The notes under the pieces were generated by a model that was not told the origin of the DNA, searched no databases, and was given only the letters and a program-made list of their open reading frames with translations. A stretch of 64,000 nucleotides of DNA, from the NCBI RefSeq assembly GCF_003019035.1, contig NZ_CP027447.1, one strand, 5' to 3'. This stretch comes from Escherichia coli (GTDB taxonomy: Bacteria > Pseudomonadota > Gammaproteobacteria > Enterobacterales > Enterobacteriaceae). Positions 23,738 through 61,101 of the stretch are shown piece by piece (within the stretch, counting starts at the first letter, position 1; each line of letters starts with the position of its first letter). The translations under genes were made by a program, and so were the position numbers.

Positions 23738-24769
23738 CTAAATATTCAACTCATTATAAACTTTAATCGTTTCATTAACACATTTTGACCATGAAAATTT
23801 TTGCGCCTGCAGTAAACCTCTTTCGATCATAACATTTCTTTTTAAATTAACTAATTCTAAAGCTTCTTTTAACGTAAACTCATTAATATCATCAATATAA
23901 ATAGGCGCATTCCCCCCTACTTCCGGCAACGAGGATGTGTTTGCACAAATAACTGGACATCCGGCCTGCATAGCTTCTAGGACAGGTATTCCAAACCCCT
24001 CATAACTGGAAGGGTAAACAAGTGCATATGCAGTATTATACTGTATATTTAAATCTTCATTACTCAAAAATGTAAAATGTTCATATCTATTTTTTAAATA
24101 TTTTTCAAGGAGTTCTCTTTCATATTTTTTAAGCGAGCCTCCGCCTACAATTGTAAGCTTTAAGCCATGTAATTTCCCTACAGCTTTGACTGCAAGAACG
24201 AAATTTTTATAACCTTCTCTGGCACCGACAAACAAAACTGAATTATTTACTCTCATATCAGACATGTTAGAAATATGTTTATATGATGGGGATACACCAT
24301 TATAAATCACTCTAATTTTATCTTCGCTAATTGGACAGTACTTAAGTAAATCTCTAGCAGTGTTGTTTGAAATACAAATTACGATATCACTATTCTTGAT
24401 AGCATGATATTTTTGAAGAGAATGAATAAATTTTGACATTCCTCCCCTGTATTTTTCATAGGTGAAATCATGAACAGTTGTAACATTTTTCACATTCAAA
24501 TTAGGACTTTTATGAACTCGATAATAACTTGAGTGTAAAACCCTAGTTTTAATATCACTTACATTTCTATATCTTTCTAAAATTCTTGGCTTACGATATT
24601 GCAACTTTAAGTCGCTTGTATCAAACTCAAATTCTTTATTTTTATACAATAGAATTTCAGCTTGGTAATTTGATTTCACCATTCCTTGGATCAACTCATT
24701 AAAGTATACACTTATTCCACCAAATGATTGGAGATTATAAATAATCCCATCGATAGTTACCATTATCAT
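23738..24769 (-). CDS. GT-B fold glycosyltransferase (GT4-like)
   Basis: 343 aa; C-terminal region with EGFGIPVLEAM motif characteristic of GT4 retaining transferases. Confidence 0.65.
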   Translation of the reverse strand: MIMVTIDGIIYNLQSFGGISVYFNELIQGMVKSNYQAEILLYKNKEFEFDTSDLKLQYRKPRILERYRNVSDIKTRVLHSSYYRVHKSPNLNVKNVTTVHDFTYEKYRGGMSKFIHSLQKYHAIKNSDIVICISNNTARDLLKYCPISEDKIRVIYNGVSPSYKHISNMSDMRVNNSVLFVGAREGYKNFVLAVKAVGKLHGLKLTIVGGGSLKKYERELLEKYLKNRYEHFTFLSNEDLNIQYNTAYALVYPSSYEGFGIPVLEAMQAGCPVICANTSSLPEVGGNAPIYIDDINEFTLKEALELVNLKRNVMIERGLLQAQKFSWSKCVNETIKVYNELNI

Positions 24770-26022
24770 CGCCCTCGCAAGGTAATACGTTCGATTAGAA
24801 CGAACAATATCAAAAAGAAGATCAGTAACAATACATATGCCGGCCCAGCAAAATAAGTTCCAAATGAAGGTGAAATGAGAATTATAGAAAGCAAAAAAAA
24901 GGATGCAGAGTTCGTAATTACTTTTGCATTAAACATTTTAAGCTTAGCAAAAATATAGCCATAAAAGATATTCATAGGTGAAAGAAAAGTTAAAATGATC
25001 AGTCCAACATATCCATAATCAACAAAATTATCCATCCCTTTTGAAAAAGCAGGTGTATGCCCCGACTCTGCAGCTCCTGGATAATAGATTTCATTTACAT
25101 GCAGAAATCCATATACAAAAGGTTTATCAGGAAACAAACCTCTCGGTATATAAGACCAAAATTGGCTGAAATAGACTGTGCCATTGAAAAACTTAACCAC
25201 ACCTTTATCAATATCTTGTAGCAAATAAATACTGTTTTGATACTGGTCAAAATAAGACAATACTACATCGACATTCATATTTCCAATAGCTAAAAATAAA
25301 TTATAGAGAATGGCACACGCTGCCAGGGGTGTAACTAAAATCAGGCCAAATTTTAGAAATCTAGATTTATTAAGACTTAACACTGCAAGATAAAAAATCG
25401 CAAATGAAAGAATAAAGGTTTTCGATCCAAGAAAAAAAACCAAGGTACAATAGAATATCGCGCATAAAAATAATTTTATTTCCGAGCGTAAAGCCAACGC
25501 CCTGGAAAAATAAGATACCGAAAGCATACTTAAAGAAAAGGCATATAAAACACCATTACCTTCTCGATAGTTTTGATAACCATCCCTGGGATTCGTCAAC
25601 CATCCAGAAATACCTATTTCTGACTTTGAAGAAAGAAGAACAAATAATGTAATAAACAGAACCAATGTAATATTTGATATTCTTTTTAATTTTGTATGCG
25701 AAATTAAGCAAGTTAAATAGATCTCTCTATTTTTGAATGCTATATTAAAAATAAAATAAAAGAAAATTATAGATAAAACACCCACAAAAGAGTATATGTT
25801 ATATATAAATAAAGCCTCATTATAATATTGATTTAAAGCAAAGTCTGAACCGTAGAAAAGAGGAGCCAAAATATTTTCCAATAGAAAAACCGGAAATAAA
25901 ATAATGGCGTAAATGGTAAAGGGATTGATAATTGTAAGTCTTAGCGTTTTCGTCGCTAATAAAGAAAAAGAATAATATAGTACTATAGCTAGTGTAACAT
26001 TTAAACAATATATTATTACCAC
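24766..26022 (-). CDS. wzy: O-antigen polymerase candidate
   Basis: 418 aa, very hydrophobic multi-pass membrane protein with low-complexity AT-rich codon usage, located between glycosyltransferase genes; start codon uncertain. Confidence 0.55.
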   Translation of the reverse strand: MVIIYCLNVTLAIVLYYSFSLLATKTLRLTIINPFTIYAIILFPVFLLENILAPLFYGSDFALNQYYNEALFIYNIYSFVGVLSIIFFYFIFNIAFKNREIYLTCLISHTKLKRISNITLVLFITLFVLLSSKSEIGISGWLTNPRDGYQNYREGNGVLYAFSLSMLSVSYFSRALALRSEIKLFLCAIFYCTLVFFLGSKTFILSFAIFYLAVLSLNKSRFLKFGLILVTPLAACAILYNLFLAIGNMNVDVVLSYFDQYQNSIYLLQDIDKGVVKFFNGTVYFSQFWSYIPRGLFPDKPFVYGFLHVNEIYYPGAAESGHTPAFSKGMDNFVDYGYVGLIILTFLSPMNIFYGYIFAKLKMFNAKVITNSASFFLLSIILISPSFGTYFAGPAYVLLLIFFLILFVLIERITLRGR

Positions 26023-56918: not shown

Positions 56919-58502
56919 ATGGAATGGATTGCCGATCCGTCTATCTGGGCCGGGTTAATCACGCTGATTGTGATCGAACTGGTCCTCGGCATTGATAACC
57001 TGGTCTTTATTGCCATCCTCGCCGAAAAACTACCGCCGAAGCAGCGCGACCGCGCACGGGTTACCGGGCTCCTGCTGGCGATGTTAATGCGCCTGTTACT
57101 GCTGGCGTCAATCTCCTGGCTGGTCACCCTGACTCAACCGCTGTTCAGCTTCCGCTCGTTTACCTTTAGCGCCCGCGACTTAATCATGCTGTTTGGTGGT
57201 TTCTTCCTGCTGTTCAAAGCCACGATGGAGCTGAACGAACGGCTGGAGGGGAAAGACAGCAATAACCCCACGCAACGCAAAGGTGCGAAGTTCTGGGGGG
57301 TGGTGACACAAATTGTGGTACTGGACGCCATCTTCTCACTCGACTCGGTGATTACCGCCGTCGGGATGGTCGACCATTTACTGGTCATGATGGCCGCCGT
57401 CGTTATCGCTATTAGCCTGATGTTGATGGCCAGCAAGCCCTTAACGCAATTTGTTAACAGTCACCCGACGATCGTTATTCTCTGCTTAAGCTTCCTGTTG
57501 ATGATTGGCTTTAGCCTGGTGGCAGAAGGTTTCGGCTTCGTCATACCGAAAGGCTACCTGTACGCTGCTATTGGTTTCTCGGTGATGATCGAGGCGCTCA
57601 ATCAGTTGGCTATCTTTAACCGGCGACGTTTTCTTTCCGCTAACCAGACACTGCGCCAGCGGACTACCGAAGCGGTAATGCGCCTGCTTAGCGGGCAAAA
57701 AGAAGATGCGGAACTGGACGCCGAAACCGCGTCCATGCTGGTGGATCATGGTAACCAGCAGATCTTTAATCCGCAGGAACGGCGGATGATTGAGCGGGTA
57801 CTTAATCTTAACCAGCGTACCGTCAGCAGCATTATGACGTCGCGCCACGATATTGAGCATATCGATCTCAACGCGCCGGAAGAAGAAATCCGCCAGTTGC
57901 TGGAGCGAAATCAGCATACGCGGCTGGTGGTTACCGACGGTGATGACGCAGAAGATTTGCTCGGTGTTGTTCACGTTATCGACCTGCTACAACAGTCTCT
58001 GCGCGGCGAACCGCTCAACCTGCGGGTGTTGATTCGCCAGCCGCTGGTGTTCCCGGAAACCTTGCCGTTGTTACCTGCCCTGGAGCAGTTCCGTAATGCC
58101 CGCACGCACTTTGCTTTTGTAGTGGATGAGTTTGGCTCGGTGGAAGGGATTGTGACATTAAGTGACGTCACTGAAACCATTGCCGGTAACTTGCCGAACG
58201 AAGTGGAAGAGATCGACGCCCGCCATGATATTCAGAAAAATGCGGACGGTTCCTGGACGGCGAATGGTCATATGCCGCTGGAAGATCTGGTGCAATATGT
58301 GCCGCTGCCGCTGGATGAAAAACGTGAATATCACACCATTGCCGGGCTATTGATGGAATATTTGCAGCGTATTCCAAAACCTGGCGAAGAAGTTCAGGTG
58401 GGGGATTATTTGCTTAAAACGTTGCAGGTGGAAAGCCATCGCGTGCAGAAGGTGCAAATTATTCCGCTACGTAAGGATGGCGAGATGGAGTACGAGGTGT
58501 GA
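56919..58502 (+). CDS. yegH: TerC-family membrane protein with CBS pair and CorC/HlyC transporter-associated domain
   Basis: 527 aa from [16 protein letters not shown]...; N-terminal multi-pass region, C-terminal CBS/CorC-like region. Confidence 0.8.
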
Positions 58503-58510
58503 TAAAACAT

Positions 58511-58545
58511 CAAATGCGCAGGTTCAAACTGCGCATTTGATTTAT
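58511..58545 (+). terminator. rho-independent terminator downstream of yegH
   Basis: CAAATGCGCAG-gttcaaa-CTGCGCATTTG followed by ATTT. Confidence 0.55.
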
Positions 58546-58576
58546 ACAAAATTTAGTATAATCTAAGGATGGAGTA

Positions 58577-58915
58577 ATGAGAAAAAAGCTGGCTTTTCTT
58601 GATACCAGTCTTGACGATTTACGCGCATTTCCAGAATCGTCTCGACAGGAAATTGGCTATCAACTCGACAGGTTCCAACAAGGGTTAAACCCATACGACT
58701 GGAAACCTTTTTCAACTATCGGCCCTGGTGTGCGAGAGATTCGTACTCGCGATGCTGATGGGATCTATCGCGTCATGTATATCGCAAAATTTGAAGAAGC
58801 GGTTTACGTATTGCATTGTTTTCAAAAGAAAACACAGACTACCAGTCAATCGGATGTTGATTTAGCCAAACGACGCTATAAAGAACTTGTTCAGGAGCGG
58901 AAAAATGAAAATTGA
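58577..58915 (+). CDS. type II toxin candidate, RelE/HigB superfamily (phage Gp49-like)
   Basis: 112 aa; upstream-toxin/downstream-antitoxin order; SD AAGGATGGAG and a TATAAT hexamer at 58557-58562; 3' end overlaps the next ORF. Confidence 0.6.
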   Translation: MRKKLAFLDTSLDDLRAFPESSRQEIGYQLDRFQQGLNPYDWKPFSTIGPGVREIRTRDADGIYRVMYIAKFEEAVYVLHCFQKKTQTTSQSDVDLAKRRYKELVQERKNEN

Positions 58916-59195
58916 AACCTTTGATAGTGTGTGGGATGCGGTGAGTGACACCCCTGAACAAGCGGAAAATATGCGGATCCGTGCCGAACTTGTAACGATC
59001 ATTAATAACTGGATTGAACAACAAGGGTTTAGCCAGGCCCAGGCAGCGTCTGCTTTAGGGGTCACTCAACCTCGCATATCTGAACTTGCCAGAGGTAAGA
59101 TCCAGATCTTTAGTATCGATAAATTGATCACCATGATGGCTCATGCAGGATTGCATATTCAACGTATTGAAATTCAATATCCACATGCTGCTTAG
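58905..59195 (+). CDS. XRE-family HTH antitoxin candidate (HigA-like)
   Basis: 96 aa from MKIETFDSVWDAV...; helix-turn-helix segment QAQAASALGVTQPRISELARGK; start overlaps the toxin stop by 11 nt. Confidence 0.6.
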   Translation: MKIETFDSVWDAVSDTPEQAENMRIRAELVTIINNWIEQQGFSQAQAASALGVTQPRISELARGKIQIFSIDKLITMMAHAGLHIQRIEIQYPHAA

Positions 59196-59204
59196 TGCTA
59201 TAAA

Positions 59205-59237
59205 TACAGATGGCGACAAATTGACGCCGCCATCTGC
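59205..59237. terminator. putative bidirectional terminator between the antitoxin gene and asmA
   Basis: palindrome AGATGGCG..CGCCATCT between convergent genes. Confidence 0.4.
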
Positions 59238-59247
59238 ATAACTTGTC

Positions 59248-61101
59248 TTACATCTTCTCCAGCAACTTCTTCACATCTTTGCCATTGCGGGAATCTTTAT
59301 TCCGCTCGGCCCAGTCATTCAGGCGACGTTTCGCTTCGTCCTGTAGATGTTTGCGCAGTAACTGATCCACTTGCAGGCTGTAATTGAGTTGCTGCCAGTT
59401 GCCATAAACCCGCAGCGGTACTGGCGTTTCTTTGAGGAAATCAATCAGTTTGCTTTCTCCGTTCCAGCCACCAATCACACGAATGTCAAACTGGGTGTCG
59501 CAGGTTTGATCTGCCAGATTCAACATGCCTTCCCCTGTCAGCGCCAGCACTGGCGATTGACCTTGCATGTCGTTTAACGTCACGACGCCATCCTTCAACG
59601 TCAAATCGGTGGTAAAGCGGTCAAGACGCGTTACGTTATCGAAGTTTTCAGCGGCCTTCACATCACCACCATTACGTTCTACCGCTTGCTGAATCATCTG
59701 CTGGAAGTTCATCCCTTCCATGCGTGTGTCGGTCATTTCGACATGTGCCTGTCCTTGCCAGTTGTGGCGGAATGCGTCGGCATCTATGTCAGCACCGGAG
59801 AAATCACCAGCCAGTGACATCTTTCCAGTCAACGAAATCGGATAGTTAAACGCCTTCAGAATGGTGCCAATCTCAACGTTTTCCAGCCGTGGCTGGAAGT
59901 TTATCCGCGGATTTATTGATGTCGCGTCCAGCGTGCCCGGCAGCGAAACCTGTCCACCGTTAAGCTTGCCCTGCAGTTGAGTAATTTCCAGCAAACCCGA
60001 CTTGTTGGTCATTTGCGTGGAAACATCTGTAAAATTCATTCCGCGCCAGCGCACGTTACTGGCCTGCAACAAAATATCAGCCGTAAAGCCTTGCAATCCC
60101 TGATAGGCCGGTTCATCAATACGCGAAGAAATGACCGGGCGCGGCAACGTGGATTGGCTCTGCCCTTGCTGCGCGGCACCGTTTTCACCGTTCGCTGTTT
60201 CTTTAAGCGGGATGAGGTTGTCAAGATTCAGTTGCGGGAATTGCAGTCTCAGCTGCCATTCCGGTTTCTCTGTCAGCGTGACCTGTGCTTGCCCGCTCAG
60301 CGTACTGTCATTGGCGGTCAAACTAATTTGGTTAAATGAAAGGCGTTTATGTGACTCCTGCCACTGGGCCTGGAAACTCCCCTGCCCCTGAATACCTTGT
60401 TTTGGTAAATCTGCACCCTGCAACTGCCAGTTAATTTGTTCAATAGCCGCCGTTAAATCATGCGGATAATCAGAAGCATCTACCGTACCGTTAAGGGATA
60501 TCGTGAGGTCGCGCTGATCGCGATTAACCCGCCCGGAGAACTCAAATGAGCCACGATGTTGGGGATCTTGTTCCATTTGCAGGCGGATATTGCGGATTGT
60601 CACCTGCTCGTCATCTTCATGCTGGAACACCAGCACGCTGTCCGCCATCTTAAGACTGGATATATCAAACGACCATCCGCGATCGTCTGACAGATCCGGC
60701 AAGGTATTGTCGCGCGGTGCAACCGGAGCGTCTTCACTGCGCACCGCTTCCGTCTGCGGCGTCAGTTGGATCACTGCCCCTTTTAGCATCACCTGCTTAA
60801 CGCTCAGTTGATGACTCAGTAGTGGTAAAAGCGCCACGTCCAGACGCATGTTGTCGGCGCGAACCAGTGGCTGGCTCGCGCCCTGGGCGGTGAGAGACAT
60901 TCGCCCGGAGAGGATACTAAGCTGCGGCCAGACGTGCCAACGCAGTGGCCCGTCGAGCTGCAATTGATAACCGCTACGTGCAGCAACTTGCTTGACCATA
61001 TAGTCGCGGAAATCATTCGGATTCACCAGCAACACTAACGCAGATAACCCGGCCACCAGCACGACCAGGAGTATCATCAGCGTCGTCAGAAATCGTCTCA
61101 T
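59248..61101 (-). CDS. asmA: AsmA (outer-membrane assembly / AsmA-family protein)
   Basis: 617 aa, N-terminal signal-anchor (MRRFLTTLMILLVVLVAGLSALVL). Confidence 0.85.
   Translation of the reverse strand: MRRFLTTLMILLVVLVAGLSALVLLVNPNDFRDYMVKQVAARSGYQLQLDGPLRWHVWPQLSILSGRMSLTAQGASQPLVRADNMRLDVALLPLLSHQLSVKQVMLKGAVIQLTPQTEAVRSEDAPVAPRDNTLPDLSDDRGWSFDISSLKMADSVLVFQHEDDEQVTIRNIRLQMEQDPQHRGSFEFSGRVNRDQRDLTISLNGTVDASDYPHDLTAAIEQINWQLQGADLPKQGIQGQGSFQAQWQESHKRLSFNQISLTANDSTLSGQAQVTLTEKPEWQLRLQFPQLNLDNLIPLKETANGENGAAQQGQSQSTLPRPVISSRIDEPAYQGLQGFTADILLQASNVRWRGMNFTDVSTQMTNKSGLLEITQLQGKLNGGQVSLPGTLDATSINPRINFQPRLENVEIGTILKAFNYPISLTGKMSLAGDFSGADIDADAFRHNWQGQAHVEMTDTRMEGMNFQQMIQQAVERNGGDVKAAENFDNVTRLDRFTTDLTLKDGVVTLNDMQGQSPVLALTGEGMLNLADQTCDTQFDIRVIGGWNGESKLIDFLKETPVPLRVYGNWQQLNYSLQVDQLLRKHLQDEAKRRLNDWAERNKDSRNGKDVKKLLEKM

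Follow-up and report, generated by a model that had tools for sequence, protein, structure and literature searches.

Among the toxin-antitoxin systems described so far, the closest to the locus studied here is Tad-Ata, which corresponds to the RelE-COG5606 combination (Makarova 2009, PMC2701414) and has its type example on pAMI2 of Paracoccus aminophilus (Makarova 2009, PMC2701414; Lima-Mendez 2020, PMC7157771). Pairs of a Gp49 toxin and an HTH_37 antitoxin also occur in Tn3-family transposons (Lima-Mendez 2020, PMC7157771), and a large survey of E. coli toxin-antitoxin systems lists 11 Gp49 clusters in the species (PMC10790755). How such toxins act is best followed in HigB-TAC of Mycobacterium tuberculosis, a ribosome-dependent mRNase whose catalytic pocket consists of E66, R68, N73, R77, F93, K95, Q98, and K99 (PMC9098466). 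The same work names R68, R73, K92, and F90 as the counterparts of this pocket in Streptococcus pneumoniae HigB—equating R73, F90, and K92 with R77, F93, and K95 of HigB-TAC—and describes a long C-terminal helix, alpha3, as typical of Gp49-like toxins (PMC9098466). The related toxin of IncC plasmids has likewise been described as a ribosome-dependent endoribonuclease.

In this study, we analyzed a 64,000-nt stretch of the Escherichia coli contig NZ_CP027447.1 (assembly GCF_003019035.1), referred to as the window, and followed up a pair of small genes at the junction between yegH and asmA. We think it likely that this pair represents a Tad-Ata type II toxin-antitoxin system residing on the chromosome, consisting of a predicted mRNase and its DNA-binding antidote, and that it persists as a stranded selfish element. 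The cassette is an ordinary, known kind of module: Gp49 toxin-antitoxin pairs figure in E. coli surveys (PMC10790755), and the toxin is already annotated in RefSeq under a toxin name. A literature search for yegH or asmA together with toxin-antitoxin, or for the RefSeq protein accessions, found no paper on the yegH-asmA cassette. The present work thus confirms an accessory toxin-antitoxin cassette in the yegH-asmA spacer of a minority of E. coli and adds a precise family—Tad-Ata rather than canonical HigBA—and a probable operator, which goes little beyond bookkeeping.

Gene layout, expression signals, and candidate operator

The yegH-asmA junction holds two plus-strand genes within a spacer that varies between strains:

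yegH, ends at 58502, plus strand: 5' neighbor of the cassette
58503..59247, no strand: variable yegH-asmA spacer (cassette allele), 745 bp between the two stop codons, 42.3% GC
58577..58915, plus strand: toxin gene (ORF1), ATG start, 112 aa; Gp49/Tad-type RelE-superfamily protein
58905..59195, plus strand: antitoxin gene (ORF2), ATG at 58905, 96 aa; HTH_37 (COG5606, Ata-type) Xre-family DNA-binding protein
59248-61101, minus strand: asmA, convergent 3' neighbor of the cassette

The two genes overlap by 11 nt (58905-58915). An earlier note on this DNA had described them as two small plus-strand genes of 112 and 96 aa with an overlap of that length, and both the coordinates and an independent gene call agree: E. 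coli SCU-301 is 100% identical to the window over 58450-59300, and there PGAP calls exactly the same two CDSs between yegH and asmA, naming the first "type II toxin-antitoxin system RelE/ParE family toxin" and the second "helix-turn-helix domain-containing protein." With Pfam E values of 3.6e-29 and 4.9e-22, respectively, neither ORF1 nor ORF2 is a chance reading frame.

The signals around these genes comprise the following elements:

58509-58541, plus strand: upstream hairpin, 13-bp stem directly 3' of yegH; -20.6 kcal/mol, z -7.4
58542..58561, no strand: 20-bp palindrome TTATACAAAA/TTTAGTATAA, an inverted repeat overlapping the -10 hexamer
58557-58562, plus strand: -10 hexamer TATAAT, read from the sequence; forms the right arm of the palindrome
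58565-58574, plus strand: Shine-Dalgarno AAGGATGGAG for the toxin gene, read from the sequence
58893-58897, plus strand: antitoxin Shine-Dalgarno AGGAG, read from the sequence; within the toxin gene's 3' end and 7 nt ahead of the ORF2 start at 58905
59204-59239, minus strand: downstream hairpin, an inverted repeat between the antitoxin stop and the asmA stop

The TATAAT hexamer and the Shine-Dalgarno sequence that the earlier note had assigned to the pair are both present; a canonical -35 element is lacking. Scanning the plus strand for sigma-70 promoters returned no canonical one, and a mere 14 nt separate the -10 from the best -35-like hexamer (TTGATT, 58537-58542) upstream of it; the promoter claim is therefore limited to the -10. 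Both hairpins that had been pointed out at the borders of the cassette—one as a yegH terminator, the other as a palindrome before the convergent asmA—are present. The upstream hairpin is likely the terminator of yegH and would insulate the cassette against read-through; its plus-strand U-tract (UUUAUAC) is weak, and a consensus scan flags a terminator only on the minus strand. The downstream hairpin is likely the terminator of asmA, since it folds with -24.8 kcal/mol (z -6.1) on the minus strand, where UAUUUAU follows, and with -15.5 kcal/mol on the plus strand; it may also end the cassette transcript. Over 58300-59400, the only Rfam match was sub-threshold (STnc40, E 0.99), so that no known RNA element is recognized in this interval.

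In Salmonella plasmid copies of the cassette, where the surrounding DNA is unrelated, the palindrome over the -10 hexamer is retained with hardly a base changed. Moreover, the same design—(T)ATACAAA..TTTGTATA(AT), with the -10 as its right arm—is found immediately 5' of the toxin start in many distant relatives whose proteins are only 54-63% identical. We compared the inverted repeats in 37 distinct upstream regions with 200 composition-matched shuffles of each. In 16 of these regions the strongest inverted repeat was equaled by at most 7 of the 200 shuffles, and in 13 of the 16 this strongest repeat was the palindrome adjoining the start codon; the remaining three regions, which include that of the window, have an unrelated upstream hairpin as their top repeat. 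Because the palindrome covers the -10 and is conserved in distant relatives, it is likely an operator, and we propose 58542-58561 as the candidate operator for the helix-turn-helix antitoxin. A conserved palindrome beside the toxin start is, as a sequence pattern, the expected signature of an autoregulatory operator.

The two genes also travel together. We examined 66 IMG/VR loci that encode a relative of the toxin along with four plasmid or phage loci. Two of these end at the toxin gene; in every one of the 68 testable loci, that is, those with downstream sequence, an antitoxin homologue (HTH_37) follows directly 3' of the toxin gene. In 48 of 65 related loci, the overlap between toxin and antitoxin gene measures 4 nt. 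Taken together, the strict pairing and the conserved operator indicate that selection has probably acted on the pair as a unit.

Predicted properties of the toxin and its antitoxin

The first gene had been taken for a Gp49-like member of the RelE/HigB superfamily and the second for an XRE-type helix-turn-helix protein, and the profile search proposed for a PF05973-like toxin and an HTH domain bears out both assignments. The toxin matches Pfam Gp49 (PF05973) with an E value of 3.6e-29 over model positions 1-90 of 90, and PHROG phrog_2523 with an E value of 1e-35. At E ≤ 0.001, Gp49 is its only Pfam match, with neither a HigB-like family nor ParE_toxin among the hits. The NCBIfam model TIGR02683 (upstrm_HI1419 RelE/ParE toxin) was tried and rejected, at 23.6 bits against a cut-off of 62.85.

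An AlphaFold2 model of the toxin, built with 41 homologues (mean pLDDT, 91), combines a small beta-sheet with two helices at the N terminus and a long one at the C terminus (residues 91-111). The toxin is thus predicted to adopt a RelE fold, which is HigB-like, with the long C-terminal helix of the Gp49-like toxins. In a Foldseek search of the PDB with this model, the best matches were to the M. tuberculosis HigB1/TAC toxin (7awk and 7nbu, TM 0.70), a set of structures that covers this toxin both free and on the ribosome; S. pneumoniae HigB, RelE, and Vibrio cholerae HigB2 followed, and ParE2 was among the weaker matches. Sequence comparisons with solved structures reach less far. The best match of the toxin sequence is weak (HMMER, S. 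pneumoniae HigB 6af3, E 0.019), and a profile of the toxin family searched against PDB sequences finds only S. pneumoniae HigB (E 0.0015) and no HigB1 chain, so that only the fold comparison links the toxin to HigB1-TAC.

The HMMER alignment to 6af3 places R65, F82, and K84 of the toxin on R73, F90, and K92 of S. pneumoniae HigB, and E54 and R56 are inferred, by spacing alone, to be the counterparts of E66 and R68 of HigB-TAC. All five residues (E54, R56, R65, F82, and K84) are invariant in 41 close homologues, which are 54-96% identical to the window protein. By analogy with these systems, the 112-aa protein is probably a ribosome-dependent mRNA endonuclease. The name given by PGAP covers both RelE and ParE, and the weaker fold matches (E 6e-3 to 4e-2) include structures of ParE2 and ParDE2, so one could instead read the toxin as a ParE-type gyrase poison. 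We regard this as extremely unlikely, as every top-ranking fold match is a HigB/RelE mRNase, no match to Pfam ParE_toxin was reported, the catalytic Arg and Lys of HigB and its conserved core Phe all have conserved counterparts, and the Gp49-type toxins with shown activity are ribosome-dependent RNases.

The antitoxin matches Pfam HTH_37 (PF13744) with an E value of 4.9e-22 and HTH_3 with an E value of 5e-7. Its match in the PDB is 2a6c (E 3e-14), a solved but functionally uncharacterized helix-turn-helix protein, and it shows a weak resemblance (E 7e-5) to the PADLOC candidate-defense component PDC-M64C. It was also compared with canonical HigA, and this candidate was rejected: NCBIfam TIGR02607 gives 16.3 bits against a cut-off of 47.7. 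The reading of the locus as a toxin-first HigB/HigA-like module is supported in its gene order, architecture, and superfamily, with the refinement that the family is Tad-Ata.

To represent the complex, we used AlphaFold2 on a single fused chain of toxin, linker, and antitoxin, with a paired alignment of such fusions. The resulting model has a pTM of 0.84 and a disordered artificial linker; across both domains, pLDDT is at least 91 in almost all blocks of 10 residues, the only exception being the last few residues of the antitoxin (pLDDT 72). A new beta-strand appears at antitoxin residues 3-6. The fused-chain model fits a complex in which the conserved N terminus of the antitoxin would contact the toxin.

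From M. tuberculosis HigB-TAC, S. pneumoniae HigB, and the Tad/HigB toxins of IncC plasmids and Acinetobacter baumannii, we infer the following mechanism for the window pair. The 112-aa protein would enter the ribosomal A site and cleave the mRNA being translated, probably by means of R65 and K84 and probably also of E54 and R56; F82 is proposed to bring the catalytic residues into position. The 96-aa protein would bind and neutralize the toxin, probably by way of the 20 conserved residues at its N terminus, and its helix-turn-helix would repress the operon at the palindrome 58542-58561. In its plasmid relatives, such a module serves as an addiction or stabilization system.

Distribution, decay, and role on the chromosome

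A survey of the junction across complete E. coli genomes, which had been put forward as a check, finds the cassette in 792 of 5,426 (15%), always at yegH-asmA. Some 3,819 E. coli genomes, MG1655 among them, instead have a 273-bp spacer that contains a REP-like element and is unrelated to the cassette allele, and further genomes carry a 451-bp variant. In MG1655, the 273-bp spacer contains no annotated gene, in accordance with the statement in the earlier note that the pair is missing from K-12. The cassette allele has no homology to either the 273-bp or the 451-bp allele, and similarity resumes at the two stop codons. Since the alleles share nothing between these stop codons, the whole spacer has been exchanged by allelic replacement; the idea of a simple insertion between yegH and asmA fails on this point. 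The cassette would have replaced the yegH-asmA spacer by recombination.

The description of the pair as accessory cargo in core DNA holds: it is present in this minority of genomes, its GC content is 42.3% compared to 52.4% in yegH and asmA, and its nearest relatives lie on plasmids. Outside E. coli, the closest relatives are found in plasmid maintenance or transfer regions. Salmonella plasmid copies (79% identical) have as neighbors either IncFII repA and parG-parA or tra and exclusion genes; the copy on a conjugative Erwinia persicina plasmid (74% identical) adjoins psiA and parB; and Pantoea plasmid copies are 70-73% identical. Prophage copies in Mycobacterium abscessus are 56% identical, and members of the family are frequent in prophages and phage-like contigs. 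The cassette is accessory and mobile in character. Two E. coli records labeled as plasmids, of 43 kb and 438 kb, were considered as evidence of mobility and set aside: both carry asmA-dcd-udk beside the cassette, and the 438-kb record also carries wza and yegH. With such chromosomal genes on the flanks, both represent chromosome-like DNA and not independent plasmid contexts.

Several E. coli lineages carry disrupted copies. In strain 13P460A, a 23-bp deletion in the toxin gene (58651-58673), equal in length to the spacing of a 14-nt direct repeat in that gene, causes a frameshift and leaves the antitoxin intact. Strain NDM2 has a frameshifted antitoxin beside a full-length toxin reading frame in which a nearly invariant residue is replaced (W42C). 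In a widespread lineage, both genes are broken, the toxin by a stop codon at Q83 and the antitoxin gene by a 1-nt deletion; the 82-aa product of the Q83stop toxin occurs on at least 326 contigs. These forms fit a loss of the toxin first and of the antitoxin afterwards, as a real toxin predicts, in a pattern that consists of three decayed forms and so amounts to anecdotes rather than a survey. Ordered from the intact pair through the toxin frameshift and the toxin missense with antitoxin frameshift to the state in which both genes are broken, the copies could provide a convenient natural series for studying the decay of chromosomal toxin-antitoxin systems.

The same disrupted copies can be read differently, namely as remnants of a non-toxic or domesticated Gp49/HTH pair that forms only a small autoregulated transcription unit or a neutral leftover. 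They show that the cassette is dispensable, and NDM2 tolerates a frameshifted antitoxin adjoining a full-length toxin reading frame; further, the window copy lacks a canonical -35. There is also precedent in the family: HigB2 and HigB3 of M. tuberculosis, which a paper on A. baumannii higBA lists as Gp49-domain homologues, are not toxic in Mycobacterium smegmatis or E. coli (PMC9098466), so that membership in Gp49 is no guarantee of toxicity. We nonetheless consider a non-toxic pair rather unlikely. Both window reading frames are intact with all proposed catalytic counterparts conserved, the W42C exchange in NDM2 fits a prior inactivation of a real toxin, and the strict pairing with a conserved operator indicates selection on the pair as a unit.

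A separate question is what the cassette does on the chromosome. Given that prophages and phage-like contigs commonly carry the family, and that the antitoxin weakly resembles PDC-M64C (E 7e-5), its chromosomal role could be anti-phage abortive infection rather than plasmid-style addiction, with the same molecular mechanism. This appears highly improbable, as the toxin has no significant match among the PADLOC defense models (the best is NsnC, E 0.0024) and the locus lies outside any defense island, with yegH, asmA, and colanic acid genes as its neighbors. More broadly, the chromosomal copy might be an active cassette that benefits its carriers, be it by abortive-infection defense or as an anchor against deletion or replacement of the surface-polysaccharide region: the colanic acid cluster abuts the cassette region, and the O-antigen cluster is about 20 kb away. 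Such a benefit, which we judge very unlikely, would explain why the same site is occupied in about 15% of E. coli. As the most likely state of the chromosomal copy, we favor a stranded selfish cassette, one that would be slowly decaying in some lineages.

Comparison with known toxin-antitoxin systems

Canonical HigB/HigA systems, as known from Proteus vulgaris Rts1 and as HigBA from E. coli K-12, resemble the window pair in being toxin-first and in combining a RelE-superfamily toxin with an Xre-HTH antitoxin. Their sequence families differ from those of the window pair, however, and canonical HigB lacks the long C-terminal helix of the window toxin model. This helix is shared, together with the RelE fold, by HigB1 of M. 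tuberculosis (the TAC toxin Rv1955; 7awk and 7nbu), and counterparts of HigB1 E66, R68, R77, F93, and K95 are present in the window toxin, although the two are only 18-20% identical in a structural alignment. In addition, TAC includes a SecB-like chaperone as a third component, whereas the window locus has no chaperone gene.

Phage N15 offers a validated Tad-Ata homologue in gp49, the namesake of the Pfam family. The N15 pair is toxin-first too, and its toxin is 32% identical to that of the window (E 2e-16). N15 gp48 was tried as a homologue of the antitoxin and rejected, as BLASTP detected no similarity to ORF2; the N15 pair is thus homologous only on the toxin side. N15 gp48 belongs to the other Xre class (COG1396), in contrast to COG5606 for the window antitoxin. 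The HigBA system of A. baumannii pAB120 and the Tad-Ata/HigBA system of IncC plasmids, which are experimentally toxic, have a Gp49-domain toxin, an HTH antitoxin, and the reverse gene order in common with the window pair, yet both are distant relatives, and the Acinetobacter plasmid matches align only over residues 51-112, with 42% identity.

The closest likeness is to Tad-Ata itself, with its Gp49/PF05973 (COG4679, DUF891) toxin, its HTH_37/PF13744 (COG5606) antitoxin, and its toxin-first overlapping operon. Judged by its domain families, the precise family of the window pair is Tad-Ata (Gp49 with COG5606/HTH_37), and it is HigBA-like only in a broad sense. The window copy differs in sitting at a single fixed site of the E. 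coli chromosome and not on a plasmid or transposon, and a Tn3-associated copy from Klebsiella is only 39% identical to it.

Alternative alleles of the yegH-asmA spacer

The spacer between yegH and asmA is occupied by the toxin-antitoxin cassette (58577-59195, + strand) in the window and by sequences of 273 bp or 451 bp in other E. coli loci, so that no fewer than three alleles, unrelated or nested, occur at this one site. The REP-like element of the 273-bp allele gave a sub-threshold match to naRNA4 (E 0.003), and the 451-bp allele likewise gave a sub-threshold match to TwoAYGGAY (E 0.045).

The two alternative spacer alleles are as follows.
273-bp allele: 1054-1326 in L003 and 5487-5759 in L085 (K-12); REP-like element plus GC-rich hairpin
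451-bp allele: 1054-1504 in L002; extra insert of ~178 bp

Upstream of the cassette, the window carries a colanic acid cluster and an O-antigen cluster of the O36 family. The wzy gene of SCU-301 (37979-39232 in L018) is flagged by PGAP as "frameshifted; internal stop", whereas the corresponding span of the window, at about 24766-26022 (- strand), is an uninterrupted 418-aa ORF.

Broken copies of the cassette

In a widespread E. coli lineage (L016/L017; GCA_014327655.1 and others), both cassette genes are broken, the toxin by a premature stop (Q83stop, C58823T) and the antitoxin gene by a 1-nt deletion at 58948, in a spacer that differs from that of the window at 37 positions; the resulting 82-aa toxin product is found on at least 326 contigs. 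Strain 13P460A (L010, NZ_CP019271.1) retains an intact antitoxin gene beside a toxin gene frameshifted by a 23-bp deletion (window 58651-58673). The toxin gene contains an imperfect 14-nt direct repeat (window 58636-58672; ATCGTCTCGACAGG / ATCAACTCGACAGG, 23 nt apart), and the deletion matches the spacing of these repeats; it looks like a slipped-strand event between them.

In an exact-sequence look-up, the protein collection placed toxin and antitoxin in one 90% cluster; rather than biology, this probably reflects an artefact, caused either by the collection itself or by a gene call that was read through or fused.

Cassettes on records labeled as plasmids

Two E. coli cassettes come from records deposited as plasmids. 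In both the 43-kb "plasmid unnamed3" (L005, NZ_CP083887.1) and the 438-kb "plasmid" (L006, NZ_CP114132.1), the cassette adjoins chromosomal asmA-dcd-udk, joined in the latter by wza and yegH; the likely explanation for these records is either contig misassignment or a replicon derived from the chromosome. The 43-kb copy also bears a 5-bp insertion in the antitoxin and W42C in the toxin. On two Salmonella plasmid contigs, two different Gp49+HTH pairs lie within ~3 kb of each other, one of the HTH_37 type and the other of the HTH_31/HTH_3 type.

Gp49+HTH pairs on the Salmonella plasmid contigs
L011: 4001-4625; 5913-6504
L014: 4001-4623; 7190-7841

Promoter and leader in relatives

In the upstream regions of most of the distant IMG/VR relatives (L019-L084), just 6 to 9 nt separate the palindrome's -10-like right arm from the toxin start codon, a gap which implies that their toxin mRNAs would be leaderless or nearly so. 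In E. coli and S. diarizonae (L011), the corresponding gap between the right arm and the toxin start is 14 nt, and in the E. coli copy it includes a Shine-Dalgarno sequence. Many of the IMG/VR relatives also have a TTG-type -35-like element 5' of the palindrome; it lies 16 nt from the -10 in L024 (counted in that locus), compared to 14 nt for the TTG of the window.
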